This document shows, one piece after another, positions 43,260-63,698 of a DNA stretch of 64,000 bases. Below the pieces are notes generated by a model, which was not told where the DNA came from, searched no databases, and saw only the letters and a list, made by a program, of their open reading frames with translations. The translations under genes and the position numbers were made by a program. The stretch lies in assembly GCA_965140445.1 (NCBI GenBank), contig OZ223236.1, positions 4,775,191 through 4,839,190 on the forward strand, read 5' to 3'. This stretch comes from Candidatus Ozemobacteraceae bacterium. GTDB lineage: Bacteria; Muiribacteriota; Ozemobacteria; Ozemobacterales; Ozemobacteraceae. Each line of letters begins with the position of its first letter. Position 1 is the first letter of the stretch.

Positions 43260-43808
43260 TCACTTTACAATCTTTATGGAATAGCCATCTGCCTGAAAAA
43301 AATTACCAAATTTATTCTGACCAGGAAAATCGTCAAATTCGTTTTTATCCAGGTAGTTTGTGTCTGAGGACAATTTTGTATCTGCAGATGGCTTCCAACC
43401 GTCTATCGATCCATCATTAACCTCAAAACTGGTGTTTGTAGCAAGATTCTTTGAAGACCTCCAGAAATATTCATCATTTAGCCCCCACAAATAATGAGGA
43501 ATCGTTGGATCTGAAATATCATCTTCATTCAAGTAGCCATCATTTTTCAACTGAGTAAGAGCTGCAATTATAAGCGCTTTATTGCTAAGATCAGGATCAT
43601 AAGTTGGATCTGCGGTTCTCTTTAAATCAAACGCTTCGCGTATCTGTGAAAGATTTACCTGCAAACGATTTTCTTTCTCCCTTCTAACTTTGATCTCTTC
43701 CTCAGGAAGCAATCTGGTAGCGATAATTCCCATAACGATCATGCCAACCATTAGCAAAATCATTAAAGTGCCCCTTCGTTTATTTACTGATGAATATTTA
43801 CCATTCAT
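43260..43808 (-). CDS. Pseudopilin-like protein with a degenerate N-terminus (GspG-fold-like)
   Basis: MNGKYSSVNKRRGTLMILLMVGMIVMGIIATRLLP followed by EKENRLQVNLSQIREAFDL. This is a pilin-type N-terminal helix but lacks the G/FTLxE site. The ATG at 43808 lies inside the last codons of the giant gene. Confidence 0.45.
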   Translation of the reverse strand: MNGKYSSVNKRRGTLMILLMVGMIVMGIIATRLLPEEEIKVRREKENRLQVNLSQIREAFDLKRTADPTYDPDLSNKALIIAALTQLKNDGYLNEDDISDPTIPHYLWGLNDEYFWRSSKNLATNTSFEVNDGSIDGWKPSADTKLSSDTNYLDKNEFDDFPGQNKFGNFFQADGYSIKIVK

Positions 43809-46800: not shown

Positions 46801-49800
46801 AGGAAATGTGTTTGTGGCGGTAATCTGCTTAAACTTCAAATTATCCAGAGGAAGATTTCCCCCGCTAAATGCAAATAGCTGTTTCTCTGAAGTTGTCTCA
46901 CCTATACTCCATCCACCAAGGTCAATCTTGTCATTCACAATAAAAATTCTCTTACAGGGAGGCACAGTAACAATGAACTGAAAAAGGTCATAAACCTCAT
47001 CAATATCAAAGCTACTATTTGCATTTCTATCATTAAAAAGTGACATGGTAGCAATATAGGTTCCCGCAGGTTGATTATAAGGAACAAATAAACTTCCCGA
47101 AGCAGCCACAGAACCTCCTGCCGCAATAGCTCCAACCGGAGAAGGGCTGAAGCTCAAATTTGCTTTACCTATTTTCTCGGACCCAGGCCCGTTCAAATCC
47201 GTTGTAATCCATTGCACATCGTCTAATGGGTAGTTTCCCGTGTTGTCCACCCCAGTATTTTCCATGGTCGCGTCTCCACAGAGAATAGATCCGAAATCCA
47301 AGGTAGCAGAAGACAAATCCATAGCTCGGCGATAAATAACCAGATTATTCGAAGTGGCCAGGTTGGAGGTCACAGTAGCATTTGTATTTAGATCCCTTCC
47401 TTGAAGCGAAAAAGCTGCGTCACCTGTCAGACTATAATTGCCAGCAAGACCAGTATCTTGAGTTGCTTTATATTCCCATGTGATCTGCTGACTATCCTGA
47501 GCAACCACATCAACATATGTTGGAGTCGGACCGCTCACCAGTTCGGCATCCCCAACAGCTCCACCAGCCAGAGTAAGTAATGAAGGAACGGCTGAAGCAA
47601 TAGTAGATCCATTAACAACAGTATTAGTTGCAACCATAGTTACAGTGAAATTTTCACCAACAAAAACACTTGCTGGTGTAATCGTTAAATCAGTCGTTAA
47701 ATTACCCTGATTTTGAACTTTAAAATATTGCAAACCAAGCATATTCCCACGCGTAGTGCTACTTGAATCAGCATCATCCTCAATAATAACACTCCAATCA
47801 CCAATTGCTGCGGTAACCGGAAGAGTTCTAAGATAATCCACATATCCATTAACATCAGCGGCCAAAGGTGGAGAAACATTTTCCCATCCGGTTGGCCCCG
47901 TTCCTGCTTGTGGAATCATCGAGTTATAAAGTCTGATGCGATACCACTGAGACCCTGGAGTTAATCCAGAAGCACGAATATAAACGGTTTGCGTCCTGTT
48001 AAAGTTATCCTGCAAAGGATCAAAATCACTATCCGCTGAAAGCACAATCCCAACCGGATCTATTGTCCAGCTATCATTTGGAGTCAATGCGTTCAAAAGA
48101 GTAGTTGATGCTGGCCAGTTGCTGTCATAATATTGAATTTCAGCAGAGAAATTGCTTAAACCCGTTGCTGAATCCGGAGCAACTGAAACATCATAAGTTA
48201 GAGTTGTGGTAACCCCGCTAGGTATTGAAAGCGGCAAAGCAGGCGAAGTTAAAACCTGGCCGAAAGTTCCGAGGGTAAAACTTAAACTGGCCACATCTAC
48301 AACAGCTGTGGATTGTCCATTGTTTCTAACATCCACAGTTACCTGAAGGTTCTTCTGATTAAGATACACAACTGTTGGAACAGCACTCACATTCTGGACA
48401 GACAAACTTGGAGGAGTTTGAATTAAACATATATTGCTGGTAACCGCCGGACTAGTTAAGAAATCATTGGAATTAGCGTCGAAACCATAAGCAGTAGCAG
48501 AAGCTGAAAAGTTCCCTGGAGTTAGAGCACTAAAATTCCAGGTCATGGTTGCCTGAGAATTACCAGCTACATTAATAACTGCCGGATTTGGCCCGCCAGT
48601 AGTAGAAACAGTTCCAGGTCCATTCAACTGAAGAGTGCTGGCATATCCACTTGAGATTTCTGCCCCTCCGGAGTTAATGAAGGTGAGACTTGCAATAAAA
48701 GGCTGCCCGACTGATACAGTCGATGGAAGCAACATTGAAATAGTAAGGGCTGCAGGAGAAACCACCTCAAACTTATTTTCGCAGGAAACAATAGTTCCAA
48801 TGGGGTTGGTTATTTGAATGGCCCAGTCTCCATAAGGAGAAGCCGGAGACAAAGAATATTCATGATAAAGGGTTCCTGAAGCATTTGCCGTTAGAGGGCT
48901 GGAAGAAGCAACTTCTACGCCGAAAGGATCGAGCCATCTTACAACAAACTCTCCCCATGGAAGCAAATCTTCCCCTTTAGCATAAACCTCTGTCGTTCCA
49001 ACTGTTGGTTTATTAAAACTTGCTGATGGATACAAAAAAGAAGCATCTTTATAACTGTTAATTTTTTCTGCAAGAATTGTCCAGCTTGCTGGTAAAAGCG
49101 CATTAGAATACGAAATTGGGAATAAAGTATTATTATCTGTTCCAGTTACGTCTGCATCAACCACTGAGGTTCCCGTTGCGGAAACAGGAGATATATCTAC
49201 CCCGTATCTAGCTTTAGTTTCTAAACCGCCAGGAATAGCCAGCGGAAAAACAGTATTAGCATAAACATCATCATAAGTACCAAGGGAAAAATGCGAAAGC
49301 AGATCTGAACTAGTCCAGTTTGCAATAGCCTCCCCAGGATTTGAAACCCTAATAAACACAGGGGTATTGGTTTGCCCTCTATAAACTGTAGACGAAGCTG
49401 TAACTTCCTCAATAACAAGCTGGGCAGGGTTCTGAATAGTCCACGAGTCGGTAATGCTTGCCACAAGATCTTCGGTCAATTTTCCTGAAAAAGTATTTGT
49501 GCCAGACGCAGTGGCACCAATAATTGCAACTCCAGAAGGGTTAACAGGTAAAATATTAACAGTTACGGTGGCTGTAAAACTTGATAGTCCATTAATCACA
49601 GTGCCAAGCGCCGGGCTGGTGATTAATTGAGTATAAGTCCCCAGGGTAAATGTTAAAGACGCCACATCAAAGGTATATGGAGTTTCGCCCTGGTTTTCAA
49701 AATAAATCCTGACAGGAATACCATTTTGCCCTTTGTTCACGTGGGTTGGATAAGTTTCAACCTGGGTAATAACAAGGTTCGCCTTACTTCTAACCCACCA

Positions 49801-52728
49801 TTTATGAGGAGTTTGGGCAAACTCGTCAAAAAAGGTTGTTGCCCCAACAGTTGCAGTAGCAACAGCATGAATGGTTGCCGTTCCAACAGGTGAATCATCC
49901 CACACATTTACAGAAAAAGTGGCAAGGATGGTCCCTCCAGGAGGAATAGAAGCAGGGAGAGCGGGTGATACTAAAGTAGAAGTATAGCTACCAAGATCAA
50001 AAGTTAAATCTATTTCGTCCAGGTCGACTGCCCCAGAATAAAAATTTCTGACTTCTACACTTACTTCTATATTATCCTGCCCCTGGGAAACTCCCTGCGG
50101 CGTATTTGCTGAAATAGTATCGATCGAAATACCACCGTATATGAGTCGCACTTCATCGAGATAAGGCAAAGCACCATTTGCACGTCGCTGAAACTCTACT
50201 TTATACTGCAAAAATCGCAGATCTGGAGAAGGAATTGCAGCAGAACCGTTAGTGTTGCTGGTTGCAATCGTAGACCATCCGCTCCATCCGCCAAGTTCTG
50301 GCAATGCCGTTGGACCTGTGCGAACCGAGTATTTCAGTTGCCCGTCAGCGCCGCCCGTTGCCCAATATTGCAAAGTTTGCCAATCAGGATTTGAGGTTCG
50401 CGAATCAAAAACCATAGACTGAAATTCTGCTACTGAAACCTGGGTTCCGACATTACCACCAATGATAGTTCCAACAGTATAGTTACCTCTAAATGCGTCC
50501 ATGCACTGGTAAAATGCAGTTGAAGAGTTTGCAATACCAATATTTAAAGGGGTATTTGTCATGTAGCGGGTGCCATCAGAGTTGCTTATCCCAACAGTGT
50601 GGTCTGGATCAATGTTTACTGGCTTATCCCAGACCGTTGGTCCAATAAGTCCCCTGGGGCTTAAATATCTATAGCGAAGAGCAATGTCACCTGTTTCATA
50701 AATAACTGTCTGAACGTAATAAATGTCATCAGTAGCGTTGTATCTATTACAGTTCCAGCTAAAAACAACTCTGGTCGGGTCAGACAAATCATCTCGATAC
50801 AAACCGGCATCATCCAATCCTTGCACCATCAAATCCACCCAGATTGGGGCGATAATCTTGTTAAAGCCGCCGCCAATAAATTCATTCCAGGTATTTGTAT
50901 AATCCCCATCCTGGTTTCGAGCCATATTACCGTTGATATTTAAACACCAGGTGTTTTGCAAATTAGTTCCGTAAAAATAAAAGGGAAATGGTAGATTAAA
51001 ATAGGGAGTATAACCATCATCCGTATTGGTTGTTGCCAACCCTAGAGCGGCACCATTAGGAGCATTTTCCGGCCCTGCCGGCATATTTTTTCGCGTATAA
51101 TAGGGAGTCCATTCGTTAATAGAAATATCCCCAGAGTTCATAACAAATCCGTATGCGGGATCTGCAACTCCGGTATTCCCCCAGTAAACCCAGAAAGTCC
51201 TTTTTTCTCCCCTGGCCATATTAACAAGGAAAACAATATCCGGACCAGTTGTGCTGGTATTCAAATTATATCTAGGCAGTTCATTTCCCTTATCATCAGA
51301 AACTCTGATTTCATTGACGCTGCCCATTTGTCCTGCAGGAATAGTCAGCTGAATTCTGCATGGGGCGTTTATTCTTTCAGTTACACCCGGCTCTGTAACC
51401 TCAACAGGAACTGAATATCGCCAGTAACCAGCCCCACCTGTGCCAGAAAAATTCTTTGGATATACCCTACCAGGATTAGTGGTTAAATCTATCTGATCTA
51501 AAACTCTGGCGTTATTGAAAAATGTCTGTGATGCTGTATCTGTCAAGACCTGATCTCTTCTAGATAAAAATCCATCGCTGAAACCAGAACTTTGCACCGC
51601 ACCAAGAAGATCAACAACACGTGCACCGCAGTAATAGGTTGTTCCGCTAGCCAACGTCAGCCCCGTGAATACGGCATGGTCTGAAAGTCCTACATCTGTC
51701 CACGGCACCACATCATCGCTTCCCGGAGATGTTCCAACACACGCATCATACCTTAGAATAGAAGCAGGAACGTGAGGCCAATTAGATTCAACCCTATCCT
51801 CAAAAAACGAATATGCTATATCTGGACCCAAACCGTCATTCACAATAAACTTTAATACCATAGCTTCAGGAGAATAAGGCGAAACCACTCCACCTGAATC
51901 TACATCTGTGACAACGTAATAAACAATAGGCGCAGAAAGCGGAGATGTGTCTGTATAACTATTGGTATTCGTAACCGCAATCTGAGTATAAGGGCCGCCA
52001 GAAGTAGTGCTTCTGTAAACTCTATAAGGCGAGGTTCCATGAAGAGTTACCGCATTACTGGTGCTGGGATTCCATGTAAGATCTATATTACTTCCGTTTG
52101 GAGTGGCAACCAGACCGGATGGACTCATGTTTAGACTACAGTTATCCCAGTAAACAGCTGTTTCTTCACCATTATCCGCCTGAATATGAAGATAAATACG
52201 ATATAAAAAAGAACCAACCGGGTCAACCAATGATGTGACGACGTCAGATTGCCAGCCGACATGTCTTGAATCCCAATTGGTTGTGTTCTCAGAAAAAAAA
52301 GTAACCGCAACTGTTTCATTAGGGTATCCAGCACTTCCATCAATTCGAAGTGTGCCAGCCAGATCAAAGTTATCATAAACACCTGTATATATATCTCGAT
52401 GATCAAACCGAATCCGAACATAAGCCTGATCAATTGGCCCAGGAAAGGATTGTTCAAATATAAGATCAGAATCTCTATTCCAATTGTTACCCCGGAAGTA
52501 ACAGTAATAAGAACCCACAGGATTCCCGTCTGCGTTTGTCCATGTGTAGGTATTCATATTGGAGTTATTATCAAATACTCTGTGATCAATAGTCCAACCA
52601 TTGGTGTTAGTAGTTAAACCAGTGTTTTGTAGTTGCTCAAGCGCACATACCCGCGCCGCTGGCAACAAAAACAAGACAGCCAGGCAAAGCAAAACTCCCA
52701 ATGTGGAAACTCTAAAATTAGTTTTCAT
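43798..52728 (-). CDS. Giant secreted multi-domain protein (2976 aa): jelly-roll, FN3, DUF2341-like and NIDO-like modules, CARDB-like repeats, about 7-8 ASH/choice-of-anchor-D-like Ig repeats, C-terminal CBM4_9-like jelly-roll
   Basis: Signal peptide MKTNFRVSTLGVLLCLAVLFLLPAARVCA and a single uninterrupted ORF. Recurrent modules are described in the findings. Confidence 0.85.
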   Translation of the reverse strand: MKTNFRVSTLGVLLCLAVLFLLPAARVCALEQLQNTGLTTNTNGWTIDHRVFDNNSNMNTYTWTNADGNPVGSYYCYFRGNNWNRDSDLIFEQSFPGPIDQAYVRIRFDHRDIYTGVYDNFDLAGTLRIDGSAGYPNETVAVTFFSENTTNWDSRHVGWQSDVVTSLVDPVGSFLYRIYLHIQADNGEETAVYWDNCSLNMSPSGLVATPNGSNIDLTWNPSTSNAVTLHGTSPYRVYRSTTSGGPYTQIAVTNTNSYTDTSPLSAPIVYYVVTDVDSGGVVSPYSPEAMVLKFIVNDGLGPDIAYSFFEDRVESNWPHVPASILRYDACVGTSPGSDDVVPWTDVGLSDHAVFTGLTLASGTTYYCGARVVDLLGAVQSSGFSDGFLSRRDQVLTDTASQTFFNNARVLDQIDLTTNPGRVYPKNFSGTGGAGYWRYSVPVEVTEPGVTERINAPCRIQLTIPAGQMGSVNEIRVSDDKGNELPRYNLNTSTTGPDIVFLVNMARGEKRTFWVYWGNTGVADPAYGFVMNSGDISINEWTPYYTRKNMPAGPENAPNGAALGLATTNTDDGYTPYFNLPFPFYFYGTNLQNTWCLNINGNMARNQDGDYTNTWNEFIGGGFNKIIAPIWVDLMVQGLDDAGLYRDDLSDPTRVVFSWNCNRYNATDDIYYVQTVIYETGDIALRYRYLSPRGLIGPTVWDKPVNIDPDHTVGISNSDGTRYMTNTPLNIGIANSSTAFYQCMDAFRGNYTVGTIIGGNVGTQVSVAEFQSMVFDSRTSNPDWQTLQYWATGGADGQLKYSVRTGPTALPELGGWSGWSTIATSNTNGSAAIPSPDLRFLQYKVEFQRRANGALPYLDEVRLIYGGISIDTISANTPQGVSQGQDNIEVSVEVRNFYSGAVDLDEIDLTFDLGSYTSTLVSPALPASIPPGGTILATFSVNVWDDSPVGTATIHAVATATVGATTFFDEFAQTPHKWWVRSKANLVITQVETYPTHVNKGQNGIPVRIYFENQGETPYTFDVASLTFTLGTYTQLITSPALGTVINGLSSFTATVTVNILPVNPSGVAIIGATASGTNTFSGKLTEDLVASITDSWTIQNPAQLVIEEVTASSTVYRGQTNTPVFIRVSNPGEAIANWTSSDLLSHFSLGTYDDVYANTVFPLAIPGGLETKARYGVDISPVSATGTSVVDADVTGTDNNTLFPISYSNALLPASWTILAEKINSYKDASFLYPSASFNKPTVGTTEVYAKGEDLLPWGEFVVRWLDPFGVEVASSSPLTANASGTLYHEYSLSPASPYGDWAIQITNPIGTIVSCENKFEVVSPAALTISMLLPSTVSVGQPFIASLTFINSGGAEISSGYASTLQLNGPGTVSTTGGPNPAVINVAGNSQATMTWNFSALTPGNFSASATAYGFDANSNDFLTSPAVTSNICLIQTPPSLSVQNVSAVPTVVYLNQKNLQVTVDVRNNGQSTAVVDVASLSFTLGTFGQVLTSPALPLSIPSGVTTTLTYDVSVAPDSATGLSNFSAEIQYYDSNWPASTTLLNALTPNDSWTIDPVGIVLSADSDFDPLQDNFNRTQTVYIRASGLTPGSQWYRIRLYNSMIPQAGTGPTGWENVSPPLAADVNGYVDYLRTLPVTAAIGDWSVIIEDDADSSSTTRGNMLGLQYFKVQNQGNLTTDLTITPASVFVGENFTVTMVATNTVVNGSTIASAVPSLLTLAGGAVGDAELVSGPTPTYVDVVAQDSQQITWEYKATQDTGLAGNYSLTGDAAFSLQGRDLNTNATVTSNLATSNNLVIYRRAMDLSSATLDFGSILCGDATMENTGVDNTGNYPLDDVQWITTDLNGPGSEKIGKANLSFSPSPVGAIAAGGSVAASGSLFVPYNQPAGTYIATMSLFNDRNANSSFDIDEVYDLFQFIVTVPPCKRIFIVNDKIDLGGWSIGETTSEKQLFAFSGGNLPLDNLKFKQITATNTFPIFLNPVNPGPLAKTGSIVASVSSTISVGPNGSYIATWTLWNDENSDDIVDASEASDTFQVSVQVGGKSFSLLPSPVDAGIGTPSTVVTGFGPTLNNTGMLALNKLKSIFSPLTDGLGNEIASSGIGINPAISLPINAGDSVPVEMRLFVPAGTAAGLFSGTQVIFEDNNLNGVWDPSEASATFVLQVDVPLVRLIQVLIPTVDIGGVAPGNSRTVSFPCRNIGNVTLTDLRWEKQNLVSGANTVPSAQVNFPPAEPFTVAAGQFFNHDIQLTVPLGQTFGSYLSVAPNYWIYDDFNPANLTRNVDEAEYTFKVRCQIGEQKIDILEPSLVSPGDPNAQSTSILFNVKNTGSLSLSNPKATGTVLIPSAPGPINIPATRNVFVPSSLGAILSTQTKQGQWYVNIPANASAGIYLAQLTVWEDSNSNNQIDPAEATDTISLQLTVNSARVVDVVQTQLDLGWGSENTTVEGQIEVVNAGNVDLTEVRPLSADIIFGFTNIPAGNITFNPVSLGVLPVGASALATVTVVIDSNQADGTYTGNQRVYDDYNAANSLWDAAEEFDLFEILLRIGKKSVYETDPSNPAIDFGARNPGSSYSQSFTVYSGTSVPLSKVKWKIDSPLSIATYSMPVASLSFTPAGSFSIAGGGSRSCSAIVDVGNYTPPGQYVATASVWEDDNSDGNIQSAEASASFNVVVSINPVYQIDILDATLDFGQIAQGASVTKEIGFRNLGNTSLTNFNWSFSALNFGAFSIPDTDIVNPGNYSPDPVPPGAYGTSTVDIVPDPAQELGVYGPDGPQTLSAALPGSPSDVCDFICEVIAGDTGGINIASGSISQEIATTTFSALAPNNRFALSAWVCPGSGSASLAFVMADSAGEPVTTIGIKVLADGTVIPSAGLVDSGIVETVPFNHPDYPAETNMKFYRVFITFDLTYTEPMPFASTHIVLQNNSLGVGDPAAVWFDGVQLEKLSETGIPKPSSFHPAGHLISPTLEKTIGGDNSYYEW

Positions 52729-53527: not shown

Positions 53528-54529
53528 ATGCCTCAACTAAGAAAAGATCCGGTTACAAAACGCTGGGTAATCATCCTTCACGAACAGGATAAAAAACCAG
53601 AAGATTTCAAGAGAACATCTTCACCAAGACAATCTAATAATTGTCCGTTTTGCCCCGGAAATGAAGATAAAACACCAAATGAAGTAATGTCATATCGCGA
53701 ACCCGATACTCTTCCGAACCAAAAAGGCTGGGAGGTCAGGGTTATCCCAAATAAATTCCCTGCTCTTGAAATTGAAGGAGACCTTGATAGAACGGGACTC
53801 GGGCTTTACGACATGATGAACGGGATTGGGGCACACGAGGTCATTATTGAGTCCCCGGGCCACAATGACGGCTTCCACACATACAGCAAGGATCAGATTT
53901 TCAGGATTTTGAGAGCTTATACAGACAGATATAGAGACCTCAAAAGAGATAGAAGATTCAGGTACATCCTGATTTTTAAAAATCATGGGGAAGCAGCGGG
54001 CGCTAGTCTTGACCACCCCCATTCACAGCTGATAGCTACGCCGATTATTCCCAAACGAGCCATGGAAGAAATTGAAGGAGCAAGACGCTACTATTATTAT
54101 AAAGAACGCTGCGTTTTCTGTGATGTAATACGCCAGGAACTTAGCTCCGGAAAAAGAATCATTCACGAAAATGAGAATTTTGTTGCCTTTGCTCCATTTG
54201 CGTCTCGTTTCCCTTTCGAAACCTGGATCGCTCCCAAAGAGCATAAAGACTCATTTGGCGACATTGATAATAATGAAATTGAAGGATTAGCAGACATTAT
54301 GAAAGGCACGCTTTCAAAGCTTGTAAAAGCGCTGGGCAATCCACCTTTCAACTATATAATTCACACTGCACCCTGTGATGAGCATTGCTCAGACTACTTC
54401 CACTGGCATCTTGAAATCATGCCACGATTAACGAAAGTGGCTGGTTTTGAATGGGGATCTGGATTCTACGTGAACCCCATGCCACCAGAAAAAGCAGCAG
54501 AATACCTATTGAAAGTCAGCAAAGAATAA
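53528..54529 (+). CDS. GalT-family (HIT superfamily) hexose-1-phosphate nucleotidyltransferase/phosphorylase, paralog 1
   Basis: 333 aa. Zn motif CPFCPGNE, NKFPAL, and active site DHPHSQLIATP (H-x-H-x-Q). Confidence 0.85.
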   Translation: MPQLRKDPVTKRWVIILHEQDKKPEDFKRTSSPRQSNNCPFCPGNEDKTPNEVMSYREPDTLPNQKGWEVRVIPNKFPALEIEGDLDRTGLGLYDMMNGIGAHEVIIESPGHNDGFHTYSKDQIFRILRAYTDRYRDLKRDRRFRYILIFKNHGEAAGASLDHPHSQLIATPIIPKRAMEEIEGARRYYYYKERCVFCDVIRQELSSGKRIIHENENFVAFAPFASRFPFETWIAPKEHKDSFGDIDNNEIEGLADIMKGTLSKLVKALGNPPFNYIIHTAPCDEHCSDYFHWHLEIMPRLTKVAGFEWGSGFYVNPMPPEKAAEYLLKVSKE

Positions 54530-54544
54530 AGTCAGGAGAAAACC

Positions 54545-55546
54545 ATGCCACAGCTACGCAAAGACCCGGTCTTAAAACAGTGGGTAATTATTTCCCCTGA
54601 AAGGGGCAAACGCCCTTCAGATTTCAAGAAAACAAAAAAATCCGATGACGATGCAAAGGATTGTCCATTTTGCCCCGGCAATGAAACCGCGACTCCAGAG
54701 GAAACTCTCTCGTTTCGCACTGCCGGAACCGGCTCGAACGAACAGGGATGGTGGGTCAGAGTATTTCCAGATTCTTTACCGATCCTAACACCTGCTGAAG
54801 ATGCTGGCAGAGAAGGCATCGGAATGTTTGACGCCATGAATTCAATAGGAATCCATGAGGTAGTCGTTGAAACCCCCAACCACTTTTCCGGACTGCAATC
54901 CTCTACTCCAGAACAGGTAAGAGAAGTCATTTGGGCCTACAAACAACGTCTTGTAGAAATTAAGAAGAACCCAATGTTCAAACACTTTATGATTGTAAAA
55001 AACTCGGGAGAAGGTGTTTCGAACTTTTCTCATCCGCACTCACACATTGTTGCAACCCCTATCATTCCTAAAAGGATAGAAGAGGAGCTTGAGGGTTCCA
55101 GAGAATATTATCACTACCACGACAGATGCCTTTACTGCGACATGGTAAAACAAGAAGTAAAAGAACAGGTCCGCGTAGTTTTTGAGGACGACAAATTCCT
55201 GGTCTTCTGCCCATTCGCCTCAAGGTTCCCATTCGAAATGGGAATTATCCCCAAGGCTCACCACCCTTTCTTTGAAACCATAAATAACGATGGAGTACAC
55301 AGTTTTGCAAATGCTTTGCAGATTGCGCTAAAAAGGTTGGAAGCCCTGCTTCCAGGCCAGCCATACAACTTTGTTCTCCACACCTCCCCGTGCTCTGATG
55401 CCTATAAAGACTTCTACCACTGGCACATCGAGATTATCCCAAAATTAACCAAAATCGCCGGCTTCGAATGGGGCTCCGGATTTTACATCAATCCAACCAG
55501 CCCAGAGAACGCCGCAGAACTTTTAAGAGATGTAAAAATAGAATAA
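54545..55546 (+). CDS. GalT-family (HIT superfamily) paralog 2 with an H-x-H-x-H active-site motif
   Basis: 333 aa, collinear with paralog 1 without gaps. CPFCPGNE; active site SHPHSHIVATP; the NKFPAL equivalent has diverged to PDSLPIL. Confidence 0.8.
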   Translation: MPQLRKDPVLKQWVIISPERGKRPSDFKKTKKSDDDAKDCPFCPGNETATPEETLSFRTAGTGSNEQGWWVRVFPDSLPILTPAEDAGREGIGMFDAMNSIGIHEVVVETPNHFSGLQSSTPEQVREVIWAYKQRLVEIKKNPMFKHFMIVKNSGEGVSNFSHPHSHIVATPIIPKRIEEELEGSREYYHYHDRCLYCDMVKQEVKEQVRVVFEDDKFLVFCPFASRFPFEMGIIPKAHHPFFETINNDGVHSFANALQIALKRLEALLPGQPYNFVLHTSPCSDAYKDFYHWHIEIIPKLTKIAGFEWGSGFYINPTSPENAAELLRDVKIE

Positions 55547-55553
55547 TTTTTTC

Positions 55554-55582
55554 TTGACTCAATCCCCCCTTTATGCTAGAAT
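55554..55582 (+). promoter_or_regulatory. Sigma-70-type promoter for tRNA-Ala
   Basis: TTGACT (55554..55559), 17-nt spacer, TAGAAT (55577..55582); 14 nt before the mature 5' end. Confidence 0.5.
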
Positions 55583-55596
55583 TGTTGTTACCAAAT

Positions 55597-55669
55597 GGGG
55601 CTGTGGCGCAGTTGGGAGCGCGTTTGAATGGCATTCAAAAGGTCGTCGGTTCGATCCCGATCAGCTCCA
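55597..55669 (+). tRNA. tRNA-Ala (anticodon GGC)
   Basis: A 73-nt cloverleaf folded by hand. Acceptor GGGGCTG/CAGCTCC carries the G3:U70 alanine identity pair. D stem GCGC/GCGC. Anticodon stem TTTGA/TCAAA with loop AT-GGC-AT. T arm GTCGG-TTCGATC-CCGAT. Discriminator A; followed by CCG, so CCA is not fully encoded. Confidence 0.9.
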
Positions 55670-55715
55670 CCGAAAACCCGAAATCTGCAAAGATTTCGGG
55701 TTTTTTGGTTTTAGG
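55653..55715 (+). repeat. Direct repeat copy 1 (attL-like): tRNA-Ala positions 57-73 plus the downstream terminator
   Basis: 61 of 63 nt identical to 61493..61555 (offset 5840; mismatches at 55693 and 55704). Confidence 0.85.
55677..55706 (+). terminator. Rho-independent terminator after tRNA-Ala
   Basis: Perfect 9-bp stem CCCGAAATC/GATTTCGGG, loop TGCAAA, then T6. Confidence 0.8.
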
Positions 55716-56333
55716 TTTGTTTTGCCATATTTTTAATGAAACCATTGCGCTTGCAATAAGCAAGCTTGCCCTTATACTGGCATCAGATACTCTTCCGGAA
55801 TCCAAAAATTAAGTAATTTTGTGAATACAATAACGGATTGGCTGAAGGACACATCAATAAAATTAAGGTAATCAAAAGAATAATGTACGAAAAATGCAGC
55901 TTCAACACCCTAAAAAAGAAGTCTTTACTGATTCAACAATGCAGCTAATTCAACTAACCATGGAAAGAACCGAAAAATTACTTGCCATTTACAATTCAAG
56001 TTTATTCAGCGCAAAATTAGCTTTCCAGAAGACTTTAAATATCATCATGATCAGTATCTTAAACCATTAACCATTAGATTAAACAATGACCATCATCTCA
56101 GAAAGCTGCTAGTAAATAAAATAAATGAATCAAACAACATTGGAGAGAGAATTTCTTTCCTGTCCATAATGATTCCTTACTTAAGTCGAGACTTTCTAAA
56201 AAATCGCTTTGAAAAAGATGAGTTTGACTGCTTGGGCTATAGTATTTTGTCAAACAAAATTGTATCCCTCCGCGAATTATATAATTCTGCATTAGTTTCA
56301 TAAATGTTCATTCAGGTTTTATTAATAAAGGAT

Positions 56334-58118
56334 TTAGCGTTGAAGCATTTTTTCAATAGCTTGATTCACAACTTTTAATGATGAAATAACACCATCAAAA
56401 AGAAAATCCAAGGCATCAGCATACCCACTATTTAGCTTTGCAGTCTCATACTCTAGTGATTCAAGAAGCTCTTTTGCCCCTTCTTTTTCATGCGCATCAA
56501 TTACTCTTAAGTCATTATTGACAAACAAAAAAGCCAGCTCTATATTCCTCGAATTCCAATCAAAACACTCAGCAGAGCCCCTAAAAGCAGAAATCTTCTC
56601 TGCGGACTCATTAAGATTAGAAACAACGTTCATAAAAGCTTGTATAAGCCGTAATATCCTGAATTTAGAAACTTCATCTCTACCACAGCCAGCTTCTCTT
56701 AATATCCTTCGTAATGGCCCCACCTTTATCTTGTTTATAATCTCATTTATTGTCTTACATCTTGAAAGAAAATCATGCTCACCAATTTTTTCTGAAGCTA
56801 CTTTCGACAACTTTCTAAAAACTGGAAAAGCATTAATTCCTTTTTCTTCATATTCCAAGCGAGCAAATCCAACGAAATCATTAGCAGCAATTGATTCTTG
56901 AAAAAGGGCTGACGAAACTTTTTCTAAATTGTCTCCAAGATTCAAAATTTCGTCCAAAAACCTAAAAGTTTTCGATACAATACTCTCACTCTCGAACTGT
57001 TCAGAACTTATCTCCGTTTTTGAAATAGCAAAATTGCTTAAATACTCCAACTCTCTAATTGGAATTCCACTATAAAGCTCATAAATTGGAACAGACAAAA
57101 AATTTCGGCCAACTCTCTGAAAGCCTCTAAAGCCCCACTGCCCTTTATACCCCGGGCTACAAATGATTTTCCCATCTCGAGTTCTATAAATTGACGAATC
57201 AAAAACAGAATTATCTTCATACTTCTTCAAGAACTCATCTCGCACATACAATAACTCATTCATTCTTAATGATCTAGCTGCACTAGCAGATAAAGGAGAA
57301 TTAAAATCCGGCCAAACAAAAGAGTCTATACTCTTTTCTGAACAAAGCTCAGGTCCTATTGCTACAACTGTCCCCCAAACTTGTATTAAGATACCTTCTT
57401 CAAAGGTTCTTAACGAAAGTTTTCCCCAGTTATTTGGAATAGGAATATCAACATGGCTTTCCCCATTCATTAGCTCTATCAGTGAAGGAGATGTCTCGAC
57501 TTTCTTTTCATAAAAAAACACTCGAACCCCATAATGTCCCCTAAGCCATAAATATTTACGAAGATAACTGTTTTGAATTGTCCATTTTACTTCCTTGCTT
57601 GGGGAGAAATAATATTCATTTGAAACATCTCCTTCTGCAACGCTCATCTCTGGAAGAGACAAATTATCATAAACCATTCTTTGCTCTGAATTTCCCAAAA
57701 TTCTTGGAGATAAGCCAAGCGACATCCAAACTTTTTCAGCTAAGGCAAAAGAGTAATGCGAGCCATCTCCCCATGAGGCTACAATATAGTCATAGCCTGA
57801 CACACTAGGAGAAAAATTGGAAATCTCCCCCTTTTTCTGGGCCCAAGGTTCAGAGTAAGCAACAACTCCATCATTACATTCACGGCAAACAGAAATTGAA
57901 TCAACTTCTCCTTCGGGAACTGTAGCCATAAGCATATGCAAATTCTCACGTTCACCCTCAATTTGGTTCCCATTTGTCTCAAAATGTGATGTAACACAAA
58001 TCTTCTCTAATGGCGCAAAAGATTTGACTGGACTCAATAGTTCTCTAAGTTTTGGCGGCAAATCCTCCCCTTTCAGGGGTAGCTTTGATAGATAATCAAT
58101 CATCCTTAAAATTCCCAT
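56334..58118 (-). CDS. Large island protein D (594 aa), paralog of the upstream 571-aa protein; C-terminal helical region with an R-x4-H motif
   Basis: Uninterrupted ORF that overlaps the upstream gene by 23 nt (8 nt if the ATG at 58103 is used). LRVIDAH lies at aa 538-543 (56490..56507). No Walker or other catalytic motif recognised. Confidence 0.7.
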   Translation of the reverse strand: MGILRMIDYLSKLPLKGEDLPPKLRELLSPVKSFAPLEKICVTSHFETNGNQIEGERENLHMLMATVPEGEVDSISVCRECNDGVVAYSEPWAQKKGEISNFSPSVSGYDYIVASWGDGSHYSFALAEKVWMSLGLSPRILGNSEQRMVYDNLSLPEMSVAEGDVSNEYYFSPSKEVKWTIQNSYLRKYLWLRGHYGVRVFFYEKKVETSPSLIELMNGESHVDIPIPNNWGKLSLRTFEEGILIQVWGTVVAIGPELCSEKSIDSFVWPDFNSPLSASAARSLRMNELLYVRDEFLKKYEDNSVFDSSIYRTRDGKIICSPGYKGQWGFRGFQRVGRNFLSVPIYELYSGIPIRELEYLSNFAISKTEISSEQFESESIVSKTFRFLDEILNLGDNLEKVSSALFQESIAANDFVGFARLEYEEKGINAFPVFRKLSKVASEKIGEHDFLSRCKTINEIINKIKVGPLRRILREAGCGRDEVSKFRILRLIQAFMNVVSNLNESAEKISAFRGSAECFDWNSRNIELAFLFVNNDLRVIDAHEKEGAKELLESLEYETAKLNSGYADALDFLFDGVISSLKVVNQAIEKMLQR

Positions 58119-59811
58119 TCATTAAACTTTCAAAAGCCTCAATTATAAGACCTAATGATTTATCACATTCTGCACAAAGATTTTCAAAGTGCTTTTTATA
58201 ACTTCCAAACTTGGAAATTGCATTTTTTCTTATCTTTTCGGCATCTTCCTCTGAAGGATGAGCTTTTAGCTTACTTCTAAAATTGTGAACATCGTGAAAT
58301 GGGCTTAAAATTTTGTATGCCTGCTCTTTTTCAAAGCCCATACCAATAAGGCAAACTTCAAGGCATCTTAAAGCCCTAAAGTTCTCTTTTACACTGCTAT
58401 CAAATTCTTTTGCTCTTGATCGAAGCCATCCCTCTTCAAGCCCTTCAACCAAAAATTGATCCAAGTACAGTATCTCATTTGCCCATTCGTCTTTTGAACT
58501 TGATACTGGATAATTTACCTTTACAGGAAGCTTTGAGTTTCTTAACTGCCACCATCTACAGTCTGCCTCACCTAACATGGCCAACTTTCTTTTTAAGCTC
58601 AGTAAAGAGTCGTAACCTTCAAAATATTTTCCATTCCAGTCTGTTTCAATTGCACGGTCAGAAAGCCAACCTTCACCTTCAACATTATATTGCTTCCAGT
58701 GGAGCTGCTCATTATGGGGTAGATGGCCAAGATATACTAAATAAGTATGGATATACCCTTCAGAATTTACATCATAAGAACTAAGCCGCCACCCACCACG
58801 ACATGAAAGCGACCTTTCATCAATTTTATATTTTGATGTGTCACTTTTATATTTTAATAATACATCCGGTTTAAAAAAGATTGGAGTTAGTTCAAATGGC
58901 TTTCCGGTGTCTTCAAAAAAATTGTTTAGGCATTTAGGATTGCAGGACATTTCTTCAACTTCATTATTCCGTATGTTCTTTCCGAGAAAGGTAGCAAACG
59001 CCTTTTTGCCAGGGTCTTTCCCCACAATAGAATTAACAATCTCTTCCATTGTTAAATCAAAATCAATGATCTGAAATCCTCTTGTAAAGCTACCATTGTT
59101 TTGATCCCAACCAAATCTCCAATTTATATTGGCACTATGTTGTTTTTCCTCAACAAGTTCATTCCAGCCACAAAATTCACTTTGAATTCTCGTAAAATCA
59201 AAAACTTGATAAAAAACCATTTCTTGTAACACAGCATATTTGCTTAATTCATTTTTATCTATAGTTACAATTGCATTGGAATAGAGCTTTTCTGAAGATT
59301 CAAAAGGATGAATTTTTACTACATCAAAAAGATCCCCCTCTTTATCAATCTTACACCAAGCCCTCCGCTCATCAACCCAGTGTAGATCTAGGGGCTGCGA
59401 AAGTTTTTGGCTCAGCTCAAAATAACACTTTTCAAGTTCATAACCTTCAAAACTCCTGCCAAATAAAAGCTGCTCACCATTTCTGACCAAAGAATTTAGA
59501 CCATATTCTAATGGAGAGCCAACCCAAGCCTTTCTCACGGTTGCCTTGATTCCCCAAGAATCATATGGCGAATGATCCCAAGATAAAAGCTCATTAGAAT
59601 CAACCTCCCTAACCATTGATTTCGGAACCAAAATGCCATAAATCAATACGTTAGGTATCGAAGCATAAAGAATTAAATTGCTTGATTGAGCCTCTTTTTC
59701 CAAAAAAGGGATTACTTGCTTTTGTTTCAACCAATCCTTAAATTCCGCATCTCTTATTGGACTTTTCGACAAACCTATAAGTTCATTAACTCTTTTTTTT
59801 ACCATAGTCAT
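58096..59811 (-). CDS. Large island protein C (571 aa); C-terminal helical region with an R-x5-H motif
   Basis: Uninterrupted ORF starting 3 nt after the stop of the nuclease-fold gene. FRSKLKAH lies at aa 511-518 (58258..58278). Trp-rich, with no NTPase motif. Confidence 0.7.
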   Translation of the reverse strand: MTMVKKRVNELIGLSKSPIRDAEFKDWLKQKQVIPFLEKEAQSSNLILYASIPNVLIYGILVPKSMVREVDSNELLSWDHSPYDSWGIKATVRKAWVGSPLEYGLNSLVRNGEQLLFGRSFEGYELEKCYFELSQKLSQPLDLHWVDERRAWCKIDKEGDLFDVVKIHPFESSEKLYSNAIVTIDKNELSKYAVLQEMVFYQVFDFTRIQSEFCGWNELVEEKQHSANINWRFGWDQNNGSFTRGFQIIDFDLTMEEIVNSIVGKDPGKKAFATFLGKNIRNNEVEEMSCNPKCLNNFFEDTGKPFELTPIFFKPDVLLKYKSDTSKYKIDERSLSCRGGWRLSSYDVNSEGYIHTYLVYLGHLPHNEQLHWKQYNVEGEGWLSDRAIETDWNGKYFEGYDSLLSLKRKLAMLGEADCRWWQLRNSKLPVKVNYPVSSSKDEWANEILYLDQFLVEGLEEGWLRSRAKEFDSSVKENFRALRCLEVCLIGMGFEKEQAYKILSPFHDVHNFRSKLKAHPSEEDAEKIRKNAISKFGSYKKHFENLCAECDKSLGLIIEAFESLMNGNFKDD

Positions 59812-59814
59812 CTT

Positions 59815-60450
59815 TCACCATTTCCTTTTTTTGGTTGTCCAATATCCTCCATCTGCATTTGGCTTACCAGATACATCGCAACGTGTGGCTCTCTTCAATT
59901 CAAACGGCATTTCCAGTTTTAAATGTCTATAACCTTTCTCATTTATCATCCAATTAGGAATATTTGCCAGATCTAATTTTAAAGGCCTTTTCGGGCTAAG
60001 AAGGGCGAAATGCGGAACAACATGCTTCCAATCTTTTCCATCTTCTCCAAAAATACTCTTTAAACGATTCATTTTGGCATTCATTTGCTTATTAGTCCAA
60101 CCACTTGTGGCCTTTGCCTCAATAAAGATTAAATGAGTTTTATTCTTTGTTTCAAATGCGATCAGAAAATCGATATCTTCTTGTTGCCCCTTTATTAAGC
60201 CCTCGTCATTTAAGAAGATCTCTTTATTGCCTTCTTTTTCTGAAGCGATCCTTAAGCAAGCATAAACCCAATCCAAATGATAATCCATTGCTGAAAAAGC
60301 ATCTTTAGGAATGTTTAAATTCAGAATTATAGAAAGGTCATTCCTAAACTTTTCTGATAAACTAAAGCAACTATTTCCTAGACATTGCTTTACAACAAAA
60401 AATCTTTCCTTGGAGTTAAAAAGCTCAAGCTGTTGAATTATCCCTCTCAT
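59815..60450 (-). CDS. PD-(D/E)xK nuclease-fold protein
   Basis: Motif D-IDFLIAFE...(16 aa)...IFIEAKA, i.e. D104/D106 ... E123-x-K125 in track numbering (60112..60171), on alternating hydrophobic beta-strand patterns. The ATG at 60450 (MRGIIQQ...) forms an ATGA overlap with the upstream stop. Confidence 0.6.
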   Translation of the reverse strand: MRGIIQQLELFNSKERFFVVKQCLGNSCFSLSEKFRNDLSIILNLNIPKDAFSAMDYHLDWVYACLRIASEKEGNKEIFLNDEGLIKGQQEDIDFLIAFETKNKTHLIFIEAKATSGWTNKQMNAKMNRLKSIFGEDGKDWKHVVPHFALLSPKRPLKLDLANIPNWMINEKGYRHLKLEMPFELKRATRCDVSGKPNADGGYWTTKKRKW

Positions 60451-60830
60451 TTTCCATCCTCTTCCAAAAGCCAGTAAGTAACCCAACCTTCAAGACCTGA
60501 TGAAGTTCTTATTTTTCGACCATTTCCAGACTTTTTAATTATAGTCACTTTTTCCCCATGATTTGCTTTTCCAGTAAATTCTCTTGTTTGGTATTTTTTC
60601 CAAACATTTACCTTTTTCATAAGGTAATCAGCCTGTTTATCATACCCATTAATTATTGCAGGAATACTTAATTGGTCAGACTTTACATACGCATCTTTAT
60701 TTGACTCGATATCTTTTACAGGCCTTAAGCTATGATGCGTTGCCGCTGTTCCAATTTCATTTTTGCCATCTTTAATAACTGAACGATCTTCGCAGCCAAT
60801 AAATCTCACAATAAAAATGAATGCTAACAA
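60447..60830 (-). CDS. Small putative lipoprotein with an SH3b-like C-terminus
   Basis: TTG start. A hydrophobic N-terminus ends in the lipobox-like FIGC. The C-terminal GEKVTIIKKSGNGRKIRTSSGLEGWVTYWLL resembles bacterial SH3 domains. The N-terminus is atypical because it has no basic n-region. Confidence 0.4.
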   Translation of the reverse strand: MLAFIFIVRFIGCEDRSVIKDGKNEIGTAATHHSLRPVKDIESNKDAYVKSDQLSIPAIINGYDKQADYLMKKVNVWKKYQTREFTGKANHGEKVTIIKKSGNGRKIRTSSGLEGWVTYWLLEEDGK

Positions 60831-61045
60831 AATAATAAATTAGCTAGAGCAACAGCCAAAGGTTTTAGGCTTATCTTGTATTGGTTTTCCGCAATTAAGA
60901 CAAGCTTCTGCTGAAGCTGAAAAATCATTACCTCAATCTGAACTTTTTAAAAGTGCCATTTTTCTTCCTCTTATTCTTTGAATAGAAGTTTGTATATTGC
61001 TTATCTAATTTCCGAAAATTTACTCGTTCGCCGGGAGAACTCCGC

Positions 61046-61279
61046 CTATTTTATTATTGATGTGTTAATAGCAATCTGGTTCATAAAGTTTCCATGAACC
61101 TGAACAAGAGATTTAGTCACACACTCTCCGCCGTTAGGACTATTTCCCTTTTCAATAAACCATGCACATCTATCTTTGATACAAGGTTTTGAGACATTGC
61201 ACAAACATAAGTAGTCATAATATTTCCCCGCTTTATTTATTTTAGCTTTCAAAAAAGCTTTTCTAAACCAACTTCTCAA
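61046..61279 (-). CDS. Small Cys-rich hypothetical protein
   Basis: 77-aa ORF at the attR-proximal end of the island. No motif recognised; coding status uncertain. Confidence 0.3.
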   Translation of the reverse strand: MRSWFRKAFLKAKINKAGKYYDYLCLCNVSKPCIKDRCAWFIEKGNSPNGGECVTKSLVQVHGNFMNQIAINTSIIK

Positions 61280-61492
61280 CCCAAATATTATTATGTATTC
61301 TTTCTGTCTATCAATATATCATAAAGCCTGTAGAATGATTGCCTAAATTCTTGTCACAAATACCCTCTATAAAAATTGATTTTAGTGATCCGTTTTTGCT
61401 TAAGAAAAGCAAACAAAGGGTAACTTTGGGGGTAACTAACATTTTCCATGCAAAGCAAGTCGCGCCAACTAAAGCAACACGTAATACTATTA

Positions 61493-61555
61493 GATCCCGA
61501 TCAGCTCCACCGAAAACCCGAAATCTGCAAAGTTTTCGGGTTTCTTGGTTTTAGG
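61493..61555 (+). repeat. Direct repeat copy 2 (attR-like): orphan 3' fragment of tRNA-Ala plus a slightly degraded terminator
   Basis: Identical to the tRNA 3' end from T-loop position 57 onward. Upstream sequence has no tRNA 5' half. The hairpin carries one mismatch (GTTTTCGGG). Confidence 0.85.
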
Positions 61556-61721
61556 ATTTTATTTACCAACTCGACGACCATAGCATTGGCAAATTTGAGC
61601 GACTCAAAAAATCTGTATCCTGCTGAACCATTTAATTAAATAAAAGAACTGAAACTGTTTTGACCGTGACCTTGTAAGTAAGGTATCGTATATTCATATT
61701 AATCTGGCTTTAGGAGTTTTT

Positions 61722-63698
61722 ATGAACAGATGTGTGAGAATTCTTTTGGTTTTGTTGTTTTGTTGTTCTACTCAATTTGCAATGGCAGGCCCAGATAAGC
61801 CGGATCTTGTAAAGCTATTTGAAAGCGGGAATCCAACTTTTTTGCAGGTCAAACAAGCAATTCTTGATGGAGCAAATGTTAATCCAGAGACCGCATCAGA
61901 CGCTCCTCCTATTTTTGCAGCTGTTGCAAAAGCTGAAAGCATATATGTAATAAAGTGCCTTATTGATAATGGAGCGGACGTAAACCTTACCCCATTACCT
62001 GACTTTAATGTGTTAGCACTTGCTTTTTTACATAATAAACCAATTGAAATCATTGAGTATTTGCTCAAAGCCGGAGCCGCTATAACCACAACTGCAATAG
62101 AAACAGCAATTTCCAACGTAGACTTGAAAAGGATTAAGCTCCTTGAAAAGTATGGAGTAGACTTTACTAAAGAGGGACCCAAAAGAGGTTCAGCAAACCT
62201 CCATTTTGCAGCTGGTAGGAACCCCAATCCAGAGGTCATAAAATATTTGCTTTCTAAGGGATTCAAAATCAATGCCACAAATAGCATTGGAACGACTCCA
62301 CTTCATTTTGCTGTGAAAAGCAATAAAATAGCTTTGATAACAGAGCTTTTAATATCTCTGGGAGCAGATATTGAGGCAAGAGATAATCATGGAAGAACTC
62401 CTCTCCTTCTTGCAACTGAATTTAACGACAACCCGGAAGTTGCAATGGCTTTAATTAAAGCCGGTGCAGAGACTAATGTTTGTGATGACGAGGGAGTCAC
62501 GCCTTTGATGTATGCTTCATATTTTCCACTTCAAAGGCCTGTGTTAAAAGTGCTTTTGCAAAGCCGCCCAGATATAAACCAGAGCGACAAAAAAGGTTTT
62601 ACAGCTTTATCCTGGGCATGCGCGAACCCAGACAAAAAGAATCTGGAAAACATTAAAACCCTTCTACAAGCTAGTGCAAACATTGAGAGCAGAGACTGCC
62701 AGGGAAGAACTCAGTTATCCTATGCAATCTCCGTAAACAACAACCCAGAAGTAGCAGAATTACTGATTCAATCAGGAGCAGACATACATGCTGTAGACAA
62801 TAAAAAAATGACACCATTAATGCATGCTGCCTCAAAAAATGGCTTCAGTGAAGTTGTTTCAATGTTGATTAAAGCAGGAGCAAAGCTTGAAGCCAGAGAT
62901 ACAAACAAAAACACAGCTTTAAGTCTGGCTTGCAGCTTTGATGGAACAGAAGAAAATGTAAGAATTTTGCTAAAAGCAGGAGCAAGAGTTAATGTAAAAA
63001 ACTCTAAAAACGCTTACCCAATTGATTACGCTGCAACAAAATCTTTTAGCATTGAAATAATCAAAATGCTGTTAGATTCCGGTGCAAAATTTGTCAAAGG
63101 CAGCAAATCTCTATATTACGCTCTAGGTGTAGCAAGCAGAAGCTCTACAGACTTGAACCTTTTTAAAAGAATTTTGAAATTTGGATACGATTTAAATAGA
63201 CAACACGAGCTTGGAGATACAGTTCTAATAAGCGTGGCGGGTTACTGCCTTAACCCTGCAGTAATTGACTATCTTATAAGATCAGGGGCTAAAACCAATC
63301 TTAAAAACAAATTCAACATGACAGCCATGCTTGAAGCAGCTTCCTACAACTCAAACCCGGAAATTATAAGAGCCCTTGCCAGAGGTGGCGAAGAGGTTGA
63401 CTACAAATGGGACTTGAACATCACTCCGCTTATTATGGCCAGCTGGCAAAATGAAAATCCAGAGGTAGCATTAACTCTGATTCAGCTTGGCGCCAATATT
63501 GAAACAAAAGATGATCACGGCAGAACTCCATTAATTTGTGCAGCCCAAAACAATAAAAACCATGAAGTCATTAGAGCTTTGATTAAAGCAGGCGCTAACG
63601 TAGAAGCAAAAGATAAAGATGGAAAAACCGCATACGACTACATAAAAGAGAATCCGAAGCTTGAGAACAAAGATGTTCTGCAGGATTTGCTCTACTAA
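61722..63698 (+). CDS. Secreted ankyrin-repeat protein (about 18 ANK repeats)
   Basis: Signal peptide MNRCVRILLVLLFCCSTQFAMA. Repeated ..G.TPLH.A........V..LL..GA..N motifs run throughout the 658 aa. Confidence 0.9.
   Translation: MNRCVRILLVLLFCCSTQFAMAGPDKPDLVKLFESGNPTFLQVKQAILDGANVNPETASDAPPIFAAVAKAESIYVIKCLIDNGADVNLTPLPDFNVLALAFLHNKPIEIIEYLLKAGAAITTTAIETAISNVDLKRIKLLEKYGVDFTKEGPKRGSANLHFAAGRNPNPEVIKYLLSKGFKINATNSIGTTPLHFAVKSNKIALITELLISLGADIEARDNHGRTPLLLATEFNDNPEVAMALIKAGAETNVCDDEGVTPLMYASYFPLQRPVLKVLLQSRPDINQSDKKGFTALSWACANPDKKNLENIKTLLQASANIESRDCQGRTQLSYAISVNNNPEVAELLIQSGADIHAVDNKKMTPLMHAASKNGFSEVVSMLIKAGAKLEARDTNKNTALSLACSFDGTEENVRILLKAGARVNVKNSKNAYPIDYAATKSFSIEIIKMLLDSGAKFVKGSKSLYYALGVASRSSTDLNLFKRILKFGYDLNRQHELGDTVLISVAGYCLNPAVIDYLIRSGAKTNLKNKFNMTAMLEAASYNSNPEIIRALARGGEEVDYKWDLNITPLIMASWQNENPEVALTLIQLGANIETKDDHGRTPLICAAQNNKNHEVIRALIKAGANVEAKDKDGKTAYDYIKENPKLENKDVLQDLLY

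Follow-up and report, generated by a model that had tools for sequence, protein, structure and literature searches.

We examined a stretch of 64,000 nucleotides from a Candidatus Ozemobacteraceae bacterium (GenBank assembly GCA_965140445.1, contig OZ223236.1, positions 4,775,191 to 4,839,190 of the forward strand; this whole stretch is referred to as the window and its first letter as position 1), and in particular the segment that follows its tRNA-Ala(GGC) gene. The 3′ end of this gene and the adjoining terminator recur further downstream, and the two copies enclose a set of minus-strand genes. Taken as a whole, the locus is probably best explained as a genomic island that became integrated at tRNA-Ala, is now a fixed remnant and carries cargo in which we suspect stand-alone defence genes. 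The features that bear on the insertion itself are the following (attL and attR denote the left and right attachment sites):

55554..55582, plus strand: promoter-like site 5′ of the tRNA gene, TTGACT-17 nt-TAGAAT with TG (consensus scan only)
55597..55671, plus strand: tRNA-Ala(GGC) gene (ARAGORN, Rfam RF00005), with the same sequence in several Rifleibacteriota relatives
55653..55715, plus strand: attL-side copy of the repeat (repeat search, blastn)
55672..55705, plus strand: intrinsic terminator hairpin of the tRNA gene, 15 perfect pairs, −20.5 kcal/mol, followed by a T-run (folding; terminator scan passed)
61493..61555, plus strand: attR-side copy of the repeat, without a tRNA 5′ half (blastn, folding, terminator scan)

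ARAGORN places the sole tRNA gene of the window at 55597-55671, and Rfam (RF00005, 62 bits) delimits the tRNA body to 55597-55669, after which CC follows; the tRNA is intact. That its end had been copied was noticed in an initial annotation made from the letters alone, which described a duplication of 63 nt with 61 identical positions and a second copy devoid of a tRNA 5′ half. Both statements were confirmed. In blastn, 55653-55715 aligns with 61493-61555 over 63 nt with two mismatches (61/63, 96.8%), the unit consisting of the final 17 nt of the tRNA, the CC and the terminator hairpin, and neither ARAGORN nor Rfam nor a short-word blastn of the tRNA region detected a tRNA 5′ half ahead of the second copy. 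A looser repeat search returned 74 nt at 92% identity (55650-55723 versus 61490-61563, spacing 5840). A 40-nt core of the repeat occurs exactly twice in the window, with matches in 0 of 100 shuffles, and no third copy is present in the window; the att core also had no match in JGI metagenome contigs or IMG/VR. The initial annotation had named membership in a dispersed repeat family as grounds for abandoning its interpretation, and no such family came to light in the window or in these collections. Rfam and tandem-repeat scans of the island revealed nothing besides the tRNA.

The interval between the repeats measures 5777 bp and has a GC content of 35.35%, compared with 40.3% in the rest of the window. 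Not one of the 499 upstream windows of equal size has so low a value (minimum 0.3786; z = −3.6), and in tetranucleotide distance the interval ranks second of 101. Every long open reading frame (ORF) between the repeats lies on the minus strand. Neither a recombinase nor a remnant of one was detected. None of the six island ORFs gave anything significant in Pfam, NCBIfam, PADLOC or PHROGs, the non-coding ends of the island (55672-56340 and 60825-61500) had no Pfam match in six frames at E values up to 10, and five diverse tyrosine integrases, compared by phmmer with six-frame segments of the 64 kb, reached a best E value of 0.29. Serine recombinases were not found either, the Pfam scans being the sole search that covered them. 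Ten ORFs checked 26-43 kb upstream, among them housekeeping genes for Era, PhoH, an RbgA-like protein, LepB, CorC, Ffh, TrmD and RimM, contained no recombinase. The strand bias, the AT-richness and the missing recombinase ORF, all of which the initial annotation had read from the letters, have in this way been borne out, the first for all long ORFs and the last for integrases and their remnants alike.

Upstream of the tRNA gene lie two tandem GalT-like paralogues, GalT1 and GalT2 (53528-54529 and 54545-55546, plus strand), which are ~47-50% identical to each other; the pair is kept in all fetched Rifleibacteriota loci that reach far enough upstream. A search of GTDB species genomes with GalT2 retrieved 48 loci, mostly from genomes named Candidatus Riflebacteria, Rifleibacteriota or Ozemobacteraceae, the best being 77% identical. 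The tRNA-Ala(GGC) gene is situated downstream of GalT2 in 15 relatives, immediately so in 14; the tRNA is identical in several of them and the terminator sequence differs in each. In none of the 15 relatives with the order GalT1-GalT2-tRNA-Ala is the tRNA tail present a second time, and none of the island proteins is encoded at the fetched loci of the relatives. The conserved order in the relatives is TrmD-RimM-Ffh-(195-aa gene), then GalT1-GalT2-tRNA-Ala, then a 193-aa gene and a giant gene (~2990 aa). A distance of ~50-250 nt separates the terminator from the 193-aa gene in seven relatives, whose sites are unoccupied. Four other relatives have 1-4.6 kb of unrelated genes at this point, none of them integrase-like by size or sequence. 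The spot 3′ of tRNA-Ala is variable across the phylum. Three relatives (L021, 11124-15756; L037, 3996-7989; L044, 11162-14238) carry 3.5-4.6 kb between tRNA-Ala and the 193-aa gene without a tail repeat; judging by a reading of their sequences only, the genes located there include some for an 830-aa protein and for LysM/SGNH-like, ORF6N-like, GGDEF and NHL proteins. On the other side of the island, attR is followed by a gene for an ankyrin-repeat protein of 658 aa whose N-terminus is signal-like (61722-63698, plus strand). It has no homologue in the loci of the 48 relatives, which means that the right flank could be variable DNA in its own right.

Islands that use tRNA genes are recognized by insertion at the 3′ end of a tRNA gene that stays intact, by flanking direct repeats that contain the tRNA 3′ end, and by atypical composition together with absence from relatives, and all of this is found here; the integrase that such islands harbour inside the element, usually beside the tRNA, is missing. 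A tyrosine recombinase leaves a characteristic signature, namely a sharp left edge in the T-loop, an intact tRNA and a foreign low-GC insert, the element itself supplying a duplicate of the tRNA 3′ part. Here, too, the repeat has its left edge within the T-loop. Site-specific integration at a tRNA 3′ end, as read from the footprint in the initial annotation, is supported by the repeat, the intact tRNA, the composition, the relatives without these genes and an analogue with an integrase at the same tRNA species in a viral contig, and we consider it quite likely that the island was formed by integration. Recombination of the tyrosine integrase type would have inserted a small genomic island site-specifically at the 3′ end of tRNA-Ala(GGC), and a 63-nt block of identity common to element and chromosome would now be present twice, once as attL, which completes the tRNA, and once as attR.

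Three observations weigh against this explanation. The GC content at third codon positions of the island genes is 0.29 and thereby near that of the native giant gene (0.305). A giant ORF of 2976 aa and a 193-aa ORF (43260-52728, minus strand) lie upstream of GalT1 and not downstream of the tRNA. Finally, no strain-level empty site was found, the closest relatives being ~77% identical in GalT2. The position of the giant-gene block upstream of GalT1 implies that the lineage also underwent a block transposition around the tRNA locus. Since the block that follows the tRNA in relatives is placed elsewhere here, the comparison establishes that the island is absent from relatives and does not establish an empty site in the strict, strain-level sense. 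All the checks named in the initial annotation that were run spoke for its interpretation. With respect to the empty site, 15 relatives lack the island genes and the tail repeat, and seven of them are unoccupied, but an empty site in a close strain did not emerge.

The block order, which differs from that of at least 12 relatives, could also point to an altogether different origin, in which the 63-nt duplication arose as a by-product of the rearrangement of the GalT1-GalT2-tRNA and giant-gene blocks, whether through homologous recombination or through a segmental duplication combined with deletion. The length of the repeat fits such an origin as well, because it runs ~45 nt past the tRNA gene into the species-specific terminator and is long for an att core. 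However, a rearrangement would be expected to leave GalT or giant-gene sequence between the copies and not low-GC foreign genes, the other junction (43042-43259) holds neither a third copy nor a remnant, and the left edge in the T-loop combined with the intact tRNA is the classic signature of an integrase. We judge a duplication by rearrangement to be very unlikely and retain integration into tRNA-Ala as the origin of the island.

A separate question is whether the integrated island can still move. Both substitutions in the attR copy weaken its hairpin region: one bulges the stem (−14.6 kcal/mol as compared with −20.5 kcal/mol in attL) and the other interrupts the T-run. The weakened hairpin suggests that the constraint on attR has been relaxed and that some time has passed since insertion. 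As no integrase is encoded within 64 kb and attR has started to degrade, we favour a fixed remnant, and an immobile remnant is most likely, ahead of an active element; of the two options that the initial annotation had left side by side, a decayed remnant or something mobilized in trans, the former gains from these data. The latter would mean a still functional element that can be mobilized in cis or in trans, i.e., a cis-mobilizable element (CIME) or a satellite-like element, moved by an integrase that is encoded elsewhere in the 5.2-Mb genome or arrives with an incoming element at the same tRNA-Ala. Such an element would have the two att copies, which are indeed present and 97% identical, and the same tRNA species is used by viral contigs that bear an integrase; moreover, CIMEs are defined by exactly the retention of attL and attR after loss of the integration and transfer genes (PMC6323972). 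The lack of a cognate integrase within 64 kb, the absence of the att core from viral and metagenome collections and the two substitutions in attR, with the relaxed constraint that they suggest, speak against continued mobility, and we regard it as unlikely.

The cargo of the fixed remnant consists of the following ORFs and sites, in which A1, A2 and A3 denote three protein families:

56098..56301, minus strand: 67-aa ORF without homologues, a doubtful gene (ORF list, domain scans)
56334..58118, minus strand: 594-aa ORF of family A2; the public gene call of 589 aa (P0120) starts at 58103 (homologues, AlphaFold2)
56490..56507, minus strand: RVIDAH, the invariant Rx4H motif of A2, R533 and H538 in P0120 (alignment)
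58096..59811, minus strand: 571-aa ORF (P0001) of family A1, a distant paralogue of the 589-aa protein (homologues, AlphaFold2, hhalign)
58258..58278, minus strand: RSKLKAH, the invariant Rx5H motif of A1, R512 and H518, at the end of predicted helix 495-517 (alignment, AlphaFold2)
59815..60486, minus strand: 223-aa ORF of family A3; the public gene call of 211 aa (P0240) starts at 60450 (homologues)
60112..60171, minus strand: DFLIAF...LIFIEAK, the D-x16-E-x-K nuclease-type motif of A3 (alignment)
60447..60830, minus strand: 127-aa ORF with a weak SH3_3 match (Pfam, E = 0.005, under the curated cut-off) and no homologues in the fetched loci
61046..61279, minus strand: 77-aa cysteine-rich ORF without homologues (ORF list, Pfam)
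61287..61314, minus strand: promoter-like site TTGATA-16 nt-AATAAT at the upstream end of the minus-strand gene set (consensus scan only)

The genes are tightly packed. The 127-aa ORF, including its stop, extends 4 nt into the 211-aa gene call, 3 nt lie between the latter and the 571-aa gene, and the 571-aa gene, stop included, in turn extends 8 nt into the 589-aa gene call. The three larger proteins belong to sizeable families: A1 (571 aa) has 119 homologues in a database clustered at 90% identity (best 46% identity) and 2395 clusters at 50% identity in a full hidden Markov model scan, A2 (589 aa) has more than 422 homologues (best 47% identity) and A3 (211 aa) has 355 (best 51% identity). 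These come from unrelated phyla, are mostly unnamed and, where named, are all ‘hypothetical’ apart from one stray label; they exist in E. coli, Enterobacter, Serratia, Vibrio and Pseudomonas, among others. No Pfam domain was found in homologues of A1, A2 or A3, no Pfam match recurred when all sequences in the A1 and A2 alignments were scanned, and among the longer family members the scans returned only a fusion with a TIR domain. The system component models of PADLOC-DB 2.0 had no significant match to the island proteins.

The 571-aa and 589-aa proteins are, according to profile comparison and structure prediction, distant paralogues. Their AlphaFold2 models (pLDDT 90 for A1 and 87 for A2) have the same order of secondary structure elements, with a beta-rich part spanning approximately residues 1-360 followed by an all-helical C-terminal domain. 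When enlarged alignments of both families were compared with hhalign, 455 columns were collinear (E = 7e-5), with R512/H518 of A1 aligned to R533/H538 of A2, and a protein in L091/L094 bridges the families, the upstream L091 protein matching the A1 profile at 1e-10 and the A2 profile at 9e-9. Homologues are mostly solitary genes, but tandem pairs of paralogues of this superfamily recur in a few loci, namely in the window, in a marine element, in L091 and L094 (4895-8546 and 6026-9677) and in L134 (3402-7278).

R512/H518 is invariant in 37 A1 sequences and R533/H538 in 32 A2 sequences, and both pairs have the Rx4-6H spacing of HEPN ribonucleases. The models place the motif where a long helix ends and a loop follows. 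For HEPN proteins this position and a polar residue after the arginine have been described (PMC3710099), and such a polar residue is common in A1 and A2, matching that description. The following results count against a HEPN assignment: Pfam HEPN models matched neither protein, no HEPN structure was among the Foldseek matches in the PDB, and PDB profile searches with full-length profiles and with profiles of the C-terminal domain yielded nothing meaningful. A search of BFVD with Foldseek returned nothing. The evidence in favour of the assignment consists of the motif and the predicted helices. As neither a profile nor a fold match to a known HEPN family was obtained, we refer to the domain as HEPN-like and not as HEPN, and HEPN-type RNase chemistry in the A1 and A2 proteins is a tentative proposal to which we give less than an even chance.

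In A3, residues D94, E111 and K113 are invariant in 25 sequences and form a motif of the PD-(D/E)xK type. A3 had no Pfam match, and a PDB profile search was without match; PADLOC yielded weak matches to AbiU (E = 0.0037) and PDC-M47B.

Homologues of A1 were found beside a type II cyclic-oligonucleotide-based antiphage signalling system (CBASS) on the P. aeruginosa megaplasmid pWTJH6, in a marine F-type conjugative element, beside genes for DUF4365, NERD and CHAT proteins and insertion sequences, and on four viral contigs. One of them (P0396, 761 aa) is a fusion of an N-terminal TIR domain (TIR_2, E = 1.5e-17) with an A1 body of full length. Among the 150 nearest neighbours of A1 genes at 59 non-redundant loci we found four resolvases, three rve transposases, a SmaI nuclease, matches to PtuA and GajA models (two neighbours each, E values down to 1e-144) as well as four AriA-type, three AbiLi-type and four MADS-type matches. 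Homologues of A2 are encoded on 13 viral contigs, in many cases at or near the contig end, on plasmids, in an Enterobacter element with integrase, AlpA, Bro-N and D5-primase genes (P4-like), in Vibrio beside AAA_13, T5orf172 and RecD-like genes, and in E. coli between two integrases (3 of 5426 genomes). In E. coli 50EVA (L163, 10500-15612), the A2 homologue is flanked on one side by the integrase of a lambdoid prophage and on the other by that of a second element, and this second element carries an ABC-three-component system and a relaxase.

From these contexts we infer a defence role of the cargo, towards which the balance tips slightly. The cargo would then consist of stand-alone genes for anti-phage defence or abortive infection, and the island would stack independent modules, mostly of a single gene each. 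In the 571-aa and 589-aa proteins, the N-terminal part may sense an infection cue, and the C-terminal Rx4-5H HEPN-like domain may cleave RNA, which would lead to abortive infection. Because HEPN active sites form across dimers, the two adjacent paralogues could form a heterodimer. The 211-aa protein could be a DNA nuclease acting as a toxin or a separate defence module. Carried further, this leads to a broader but doubtful proposal, which we would not put at even odds: the superfamily of the 571-aa and 589-aa proteins may comprise single-protein immunity proteins that unite a beta-rich sensor with a divergent HEPN-like RNase as effector, are sometimes fused to TIR or paired, perhaps with a heterodimeric active site, and the island may be a minimal defence islet of three unnamed systems.

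Several findings weigh against this view of the cargo. The survey of A1 neighbours comes without a matched control, and many of the neighbours are ordinary or housekeeping genes. Homologues of A3 also sit among metabolic genes. Furthermore, A1 genes have an A2 neighbour at only one of 80 metagenome loci, which is again the marine conjugative element mentioned above, and an A3 neighbour at none of them. The concept of A1, A2 and A3 as one three-gene system was rejected, as the families do not co-occur elsewhere, and for the same reason the tight packing in the window need not mean joint function.

The cargo could instead serve no defence and consist of selfish addiction modules resembling toxin-antitoxin systems, or fulfil other accessory functions that travel on mobile elements. 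One A3 homologue (L166/L167, 7777-8663) is preceded by an overlapping 81-aa DUF433 gene, a member of an antitoxin-type family, amid housekeeping genes, and this arrangement looks like a toxin-antitoxin pair. It agrees with such a non-defence role, as do two other A3 contexts that contain no recognized defence genes and the many ordinary genes near A1. The TIR fusion, the neighbouring CBASS, Septu/Gabija and PARIS genes and the positions at prophage ends and in satellite-like elements are, on the other hand, typical of defence genes, and the two readings, toxin-antitoxin and defence, share ground and do not exclude each other. We consider cargo without a function in defence to be improbable.

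The island itself presents a textbook footprint and is useful mainly as an example from the little-studied phylum Rifleibacteriota. Its value lies in the cargo, that is, in three families with hundreds to thousands of members that have no match in Pfam, NCBIfam, PADLOC or PHROGs and whose genes are carried by prophages, plasmids, conjugative and satellite-like elements, with known defence systems as neighbours. Should the proteins with the Rx4-5H motif turn out to be RNases triggered by phages, they would add a widespread single-gene immune family and the island would offer a natural case of paired paralogues.

Among known immune proteins, Avs3 (8dgc) was the sole high-probability match of both models in the Foldseek search of the PDB. 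The match covers ~200-250 columns (probability 0.99 at E = 1.4e-2 for one model and 0.77 at E = 0.2 for the other), and the likeness is a local resemblance in fold with weak E values. Avs3 has 2028 aa, whereas domain scans of the window proteins with their 571-589 aa found no STAND NTPase family, for which there would be little room; specifically, no Pfam match to an NTPase as central STAND domain was obtained for the A1 and A2 proteins. Solo HEPN proteins exemplified by HepS of Gifsy-1, an abortive-infection protein with its Rx4-6H motif near residue 100, resemble the A1 and A2 proteins in that a single protein senses and acts, as we propose for A1 and A2, in the motif, in the frequent location on prophages and in the lack of a partner gene (PMC13043305). 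The window proteins have ~580 aa, while the position of the motif near residue 100 suggests a much smaller protein in HepS, and HepS was rejected as their identity on this ground. Upx, which exceeds 1100 aa and has a C-terminal nuclease, was also rejected.

With regard to the element, defence genes are found as cargo of prophage ends and of P4-like satellites or satellites resembling phage-inducible chromosomal islands. The occurrence of A2 homologues in the Enterobacter integrase/AlpA/Bro-N/D5-primase element and beside an E. coli prophage integrase is in line with such carriers; the window island differs from them in having no satellite or prophage core gene at all. A viral counterpart exists on the IMG/VR contig L168 (3866-5116), where a tyrosine recombinase gene lies ~160 nt from a partial tRNA-Ala(GGC) 3′ half with terminator. 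The PDB matches of this recombinase are integrase 3nkh (E = 4.6e-6), IntI4 and XerC/XerA-like proteins. A further contig, L173 (5154-5229), contains a full tRNA-Ala(GGC) with a related terminator. L168 and the island share the use of a partial 3′ part of tRNA-Ala(GGC) plus terminator as the att sequence, by which the tRNA is restored upon integration; L168 encodes an integrase at that short distance from its att copy and the island does not. CIMEs and decayed tRNA-linked islands are distinguished from the window island by three points: no cognate integrative and conjugative element or integrase is known for it, its attR is partly degraded, and its host replicon is a Rifleibacteriota chromosome. 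Like them, the island has attL/attR direct repeats and accessory cargo and is free of integration and transfer genes, and it has kept both attachment sites, attR with two substitutions. This type of element is already known, namely a decayed island or CIME.

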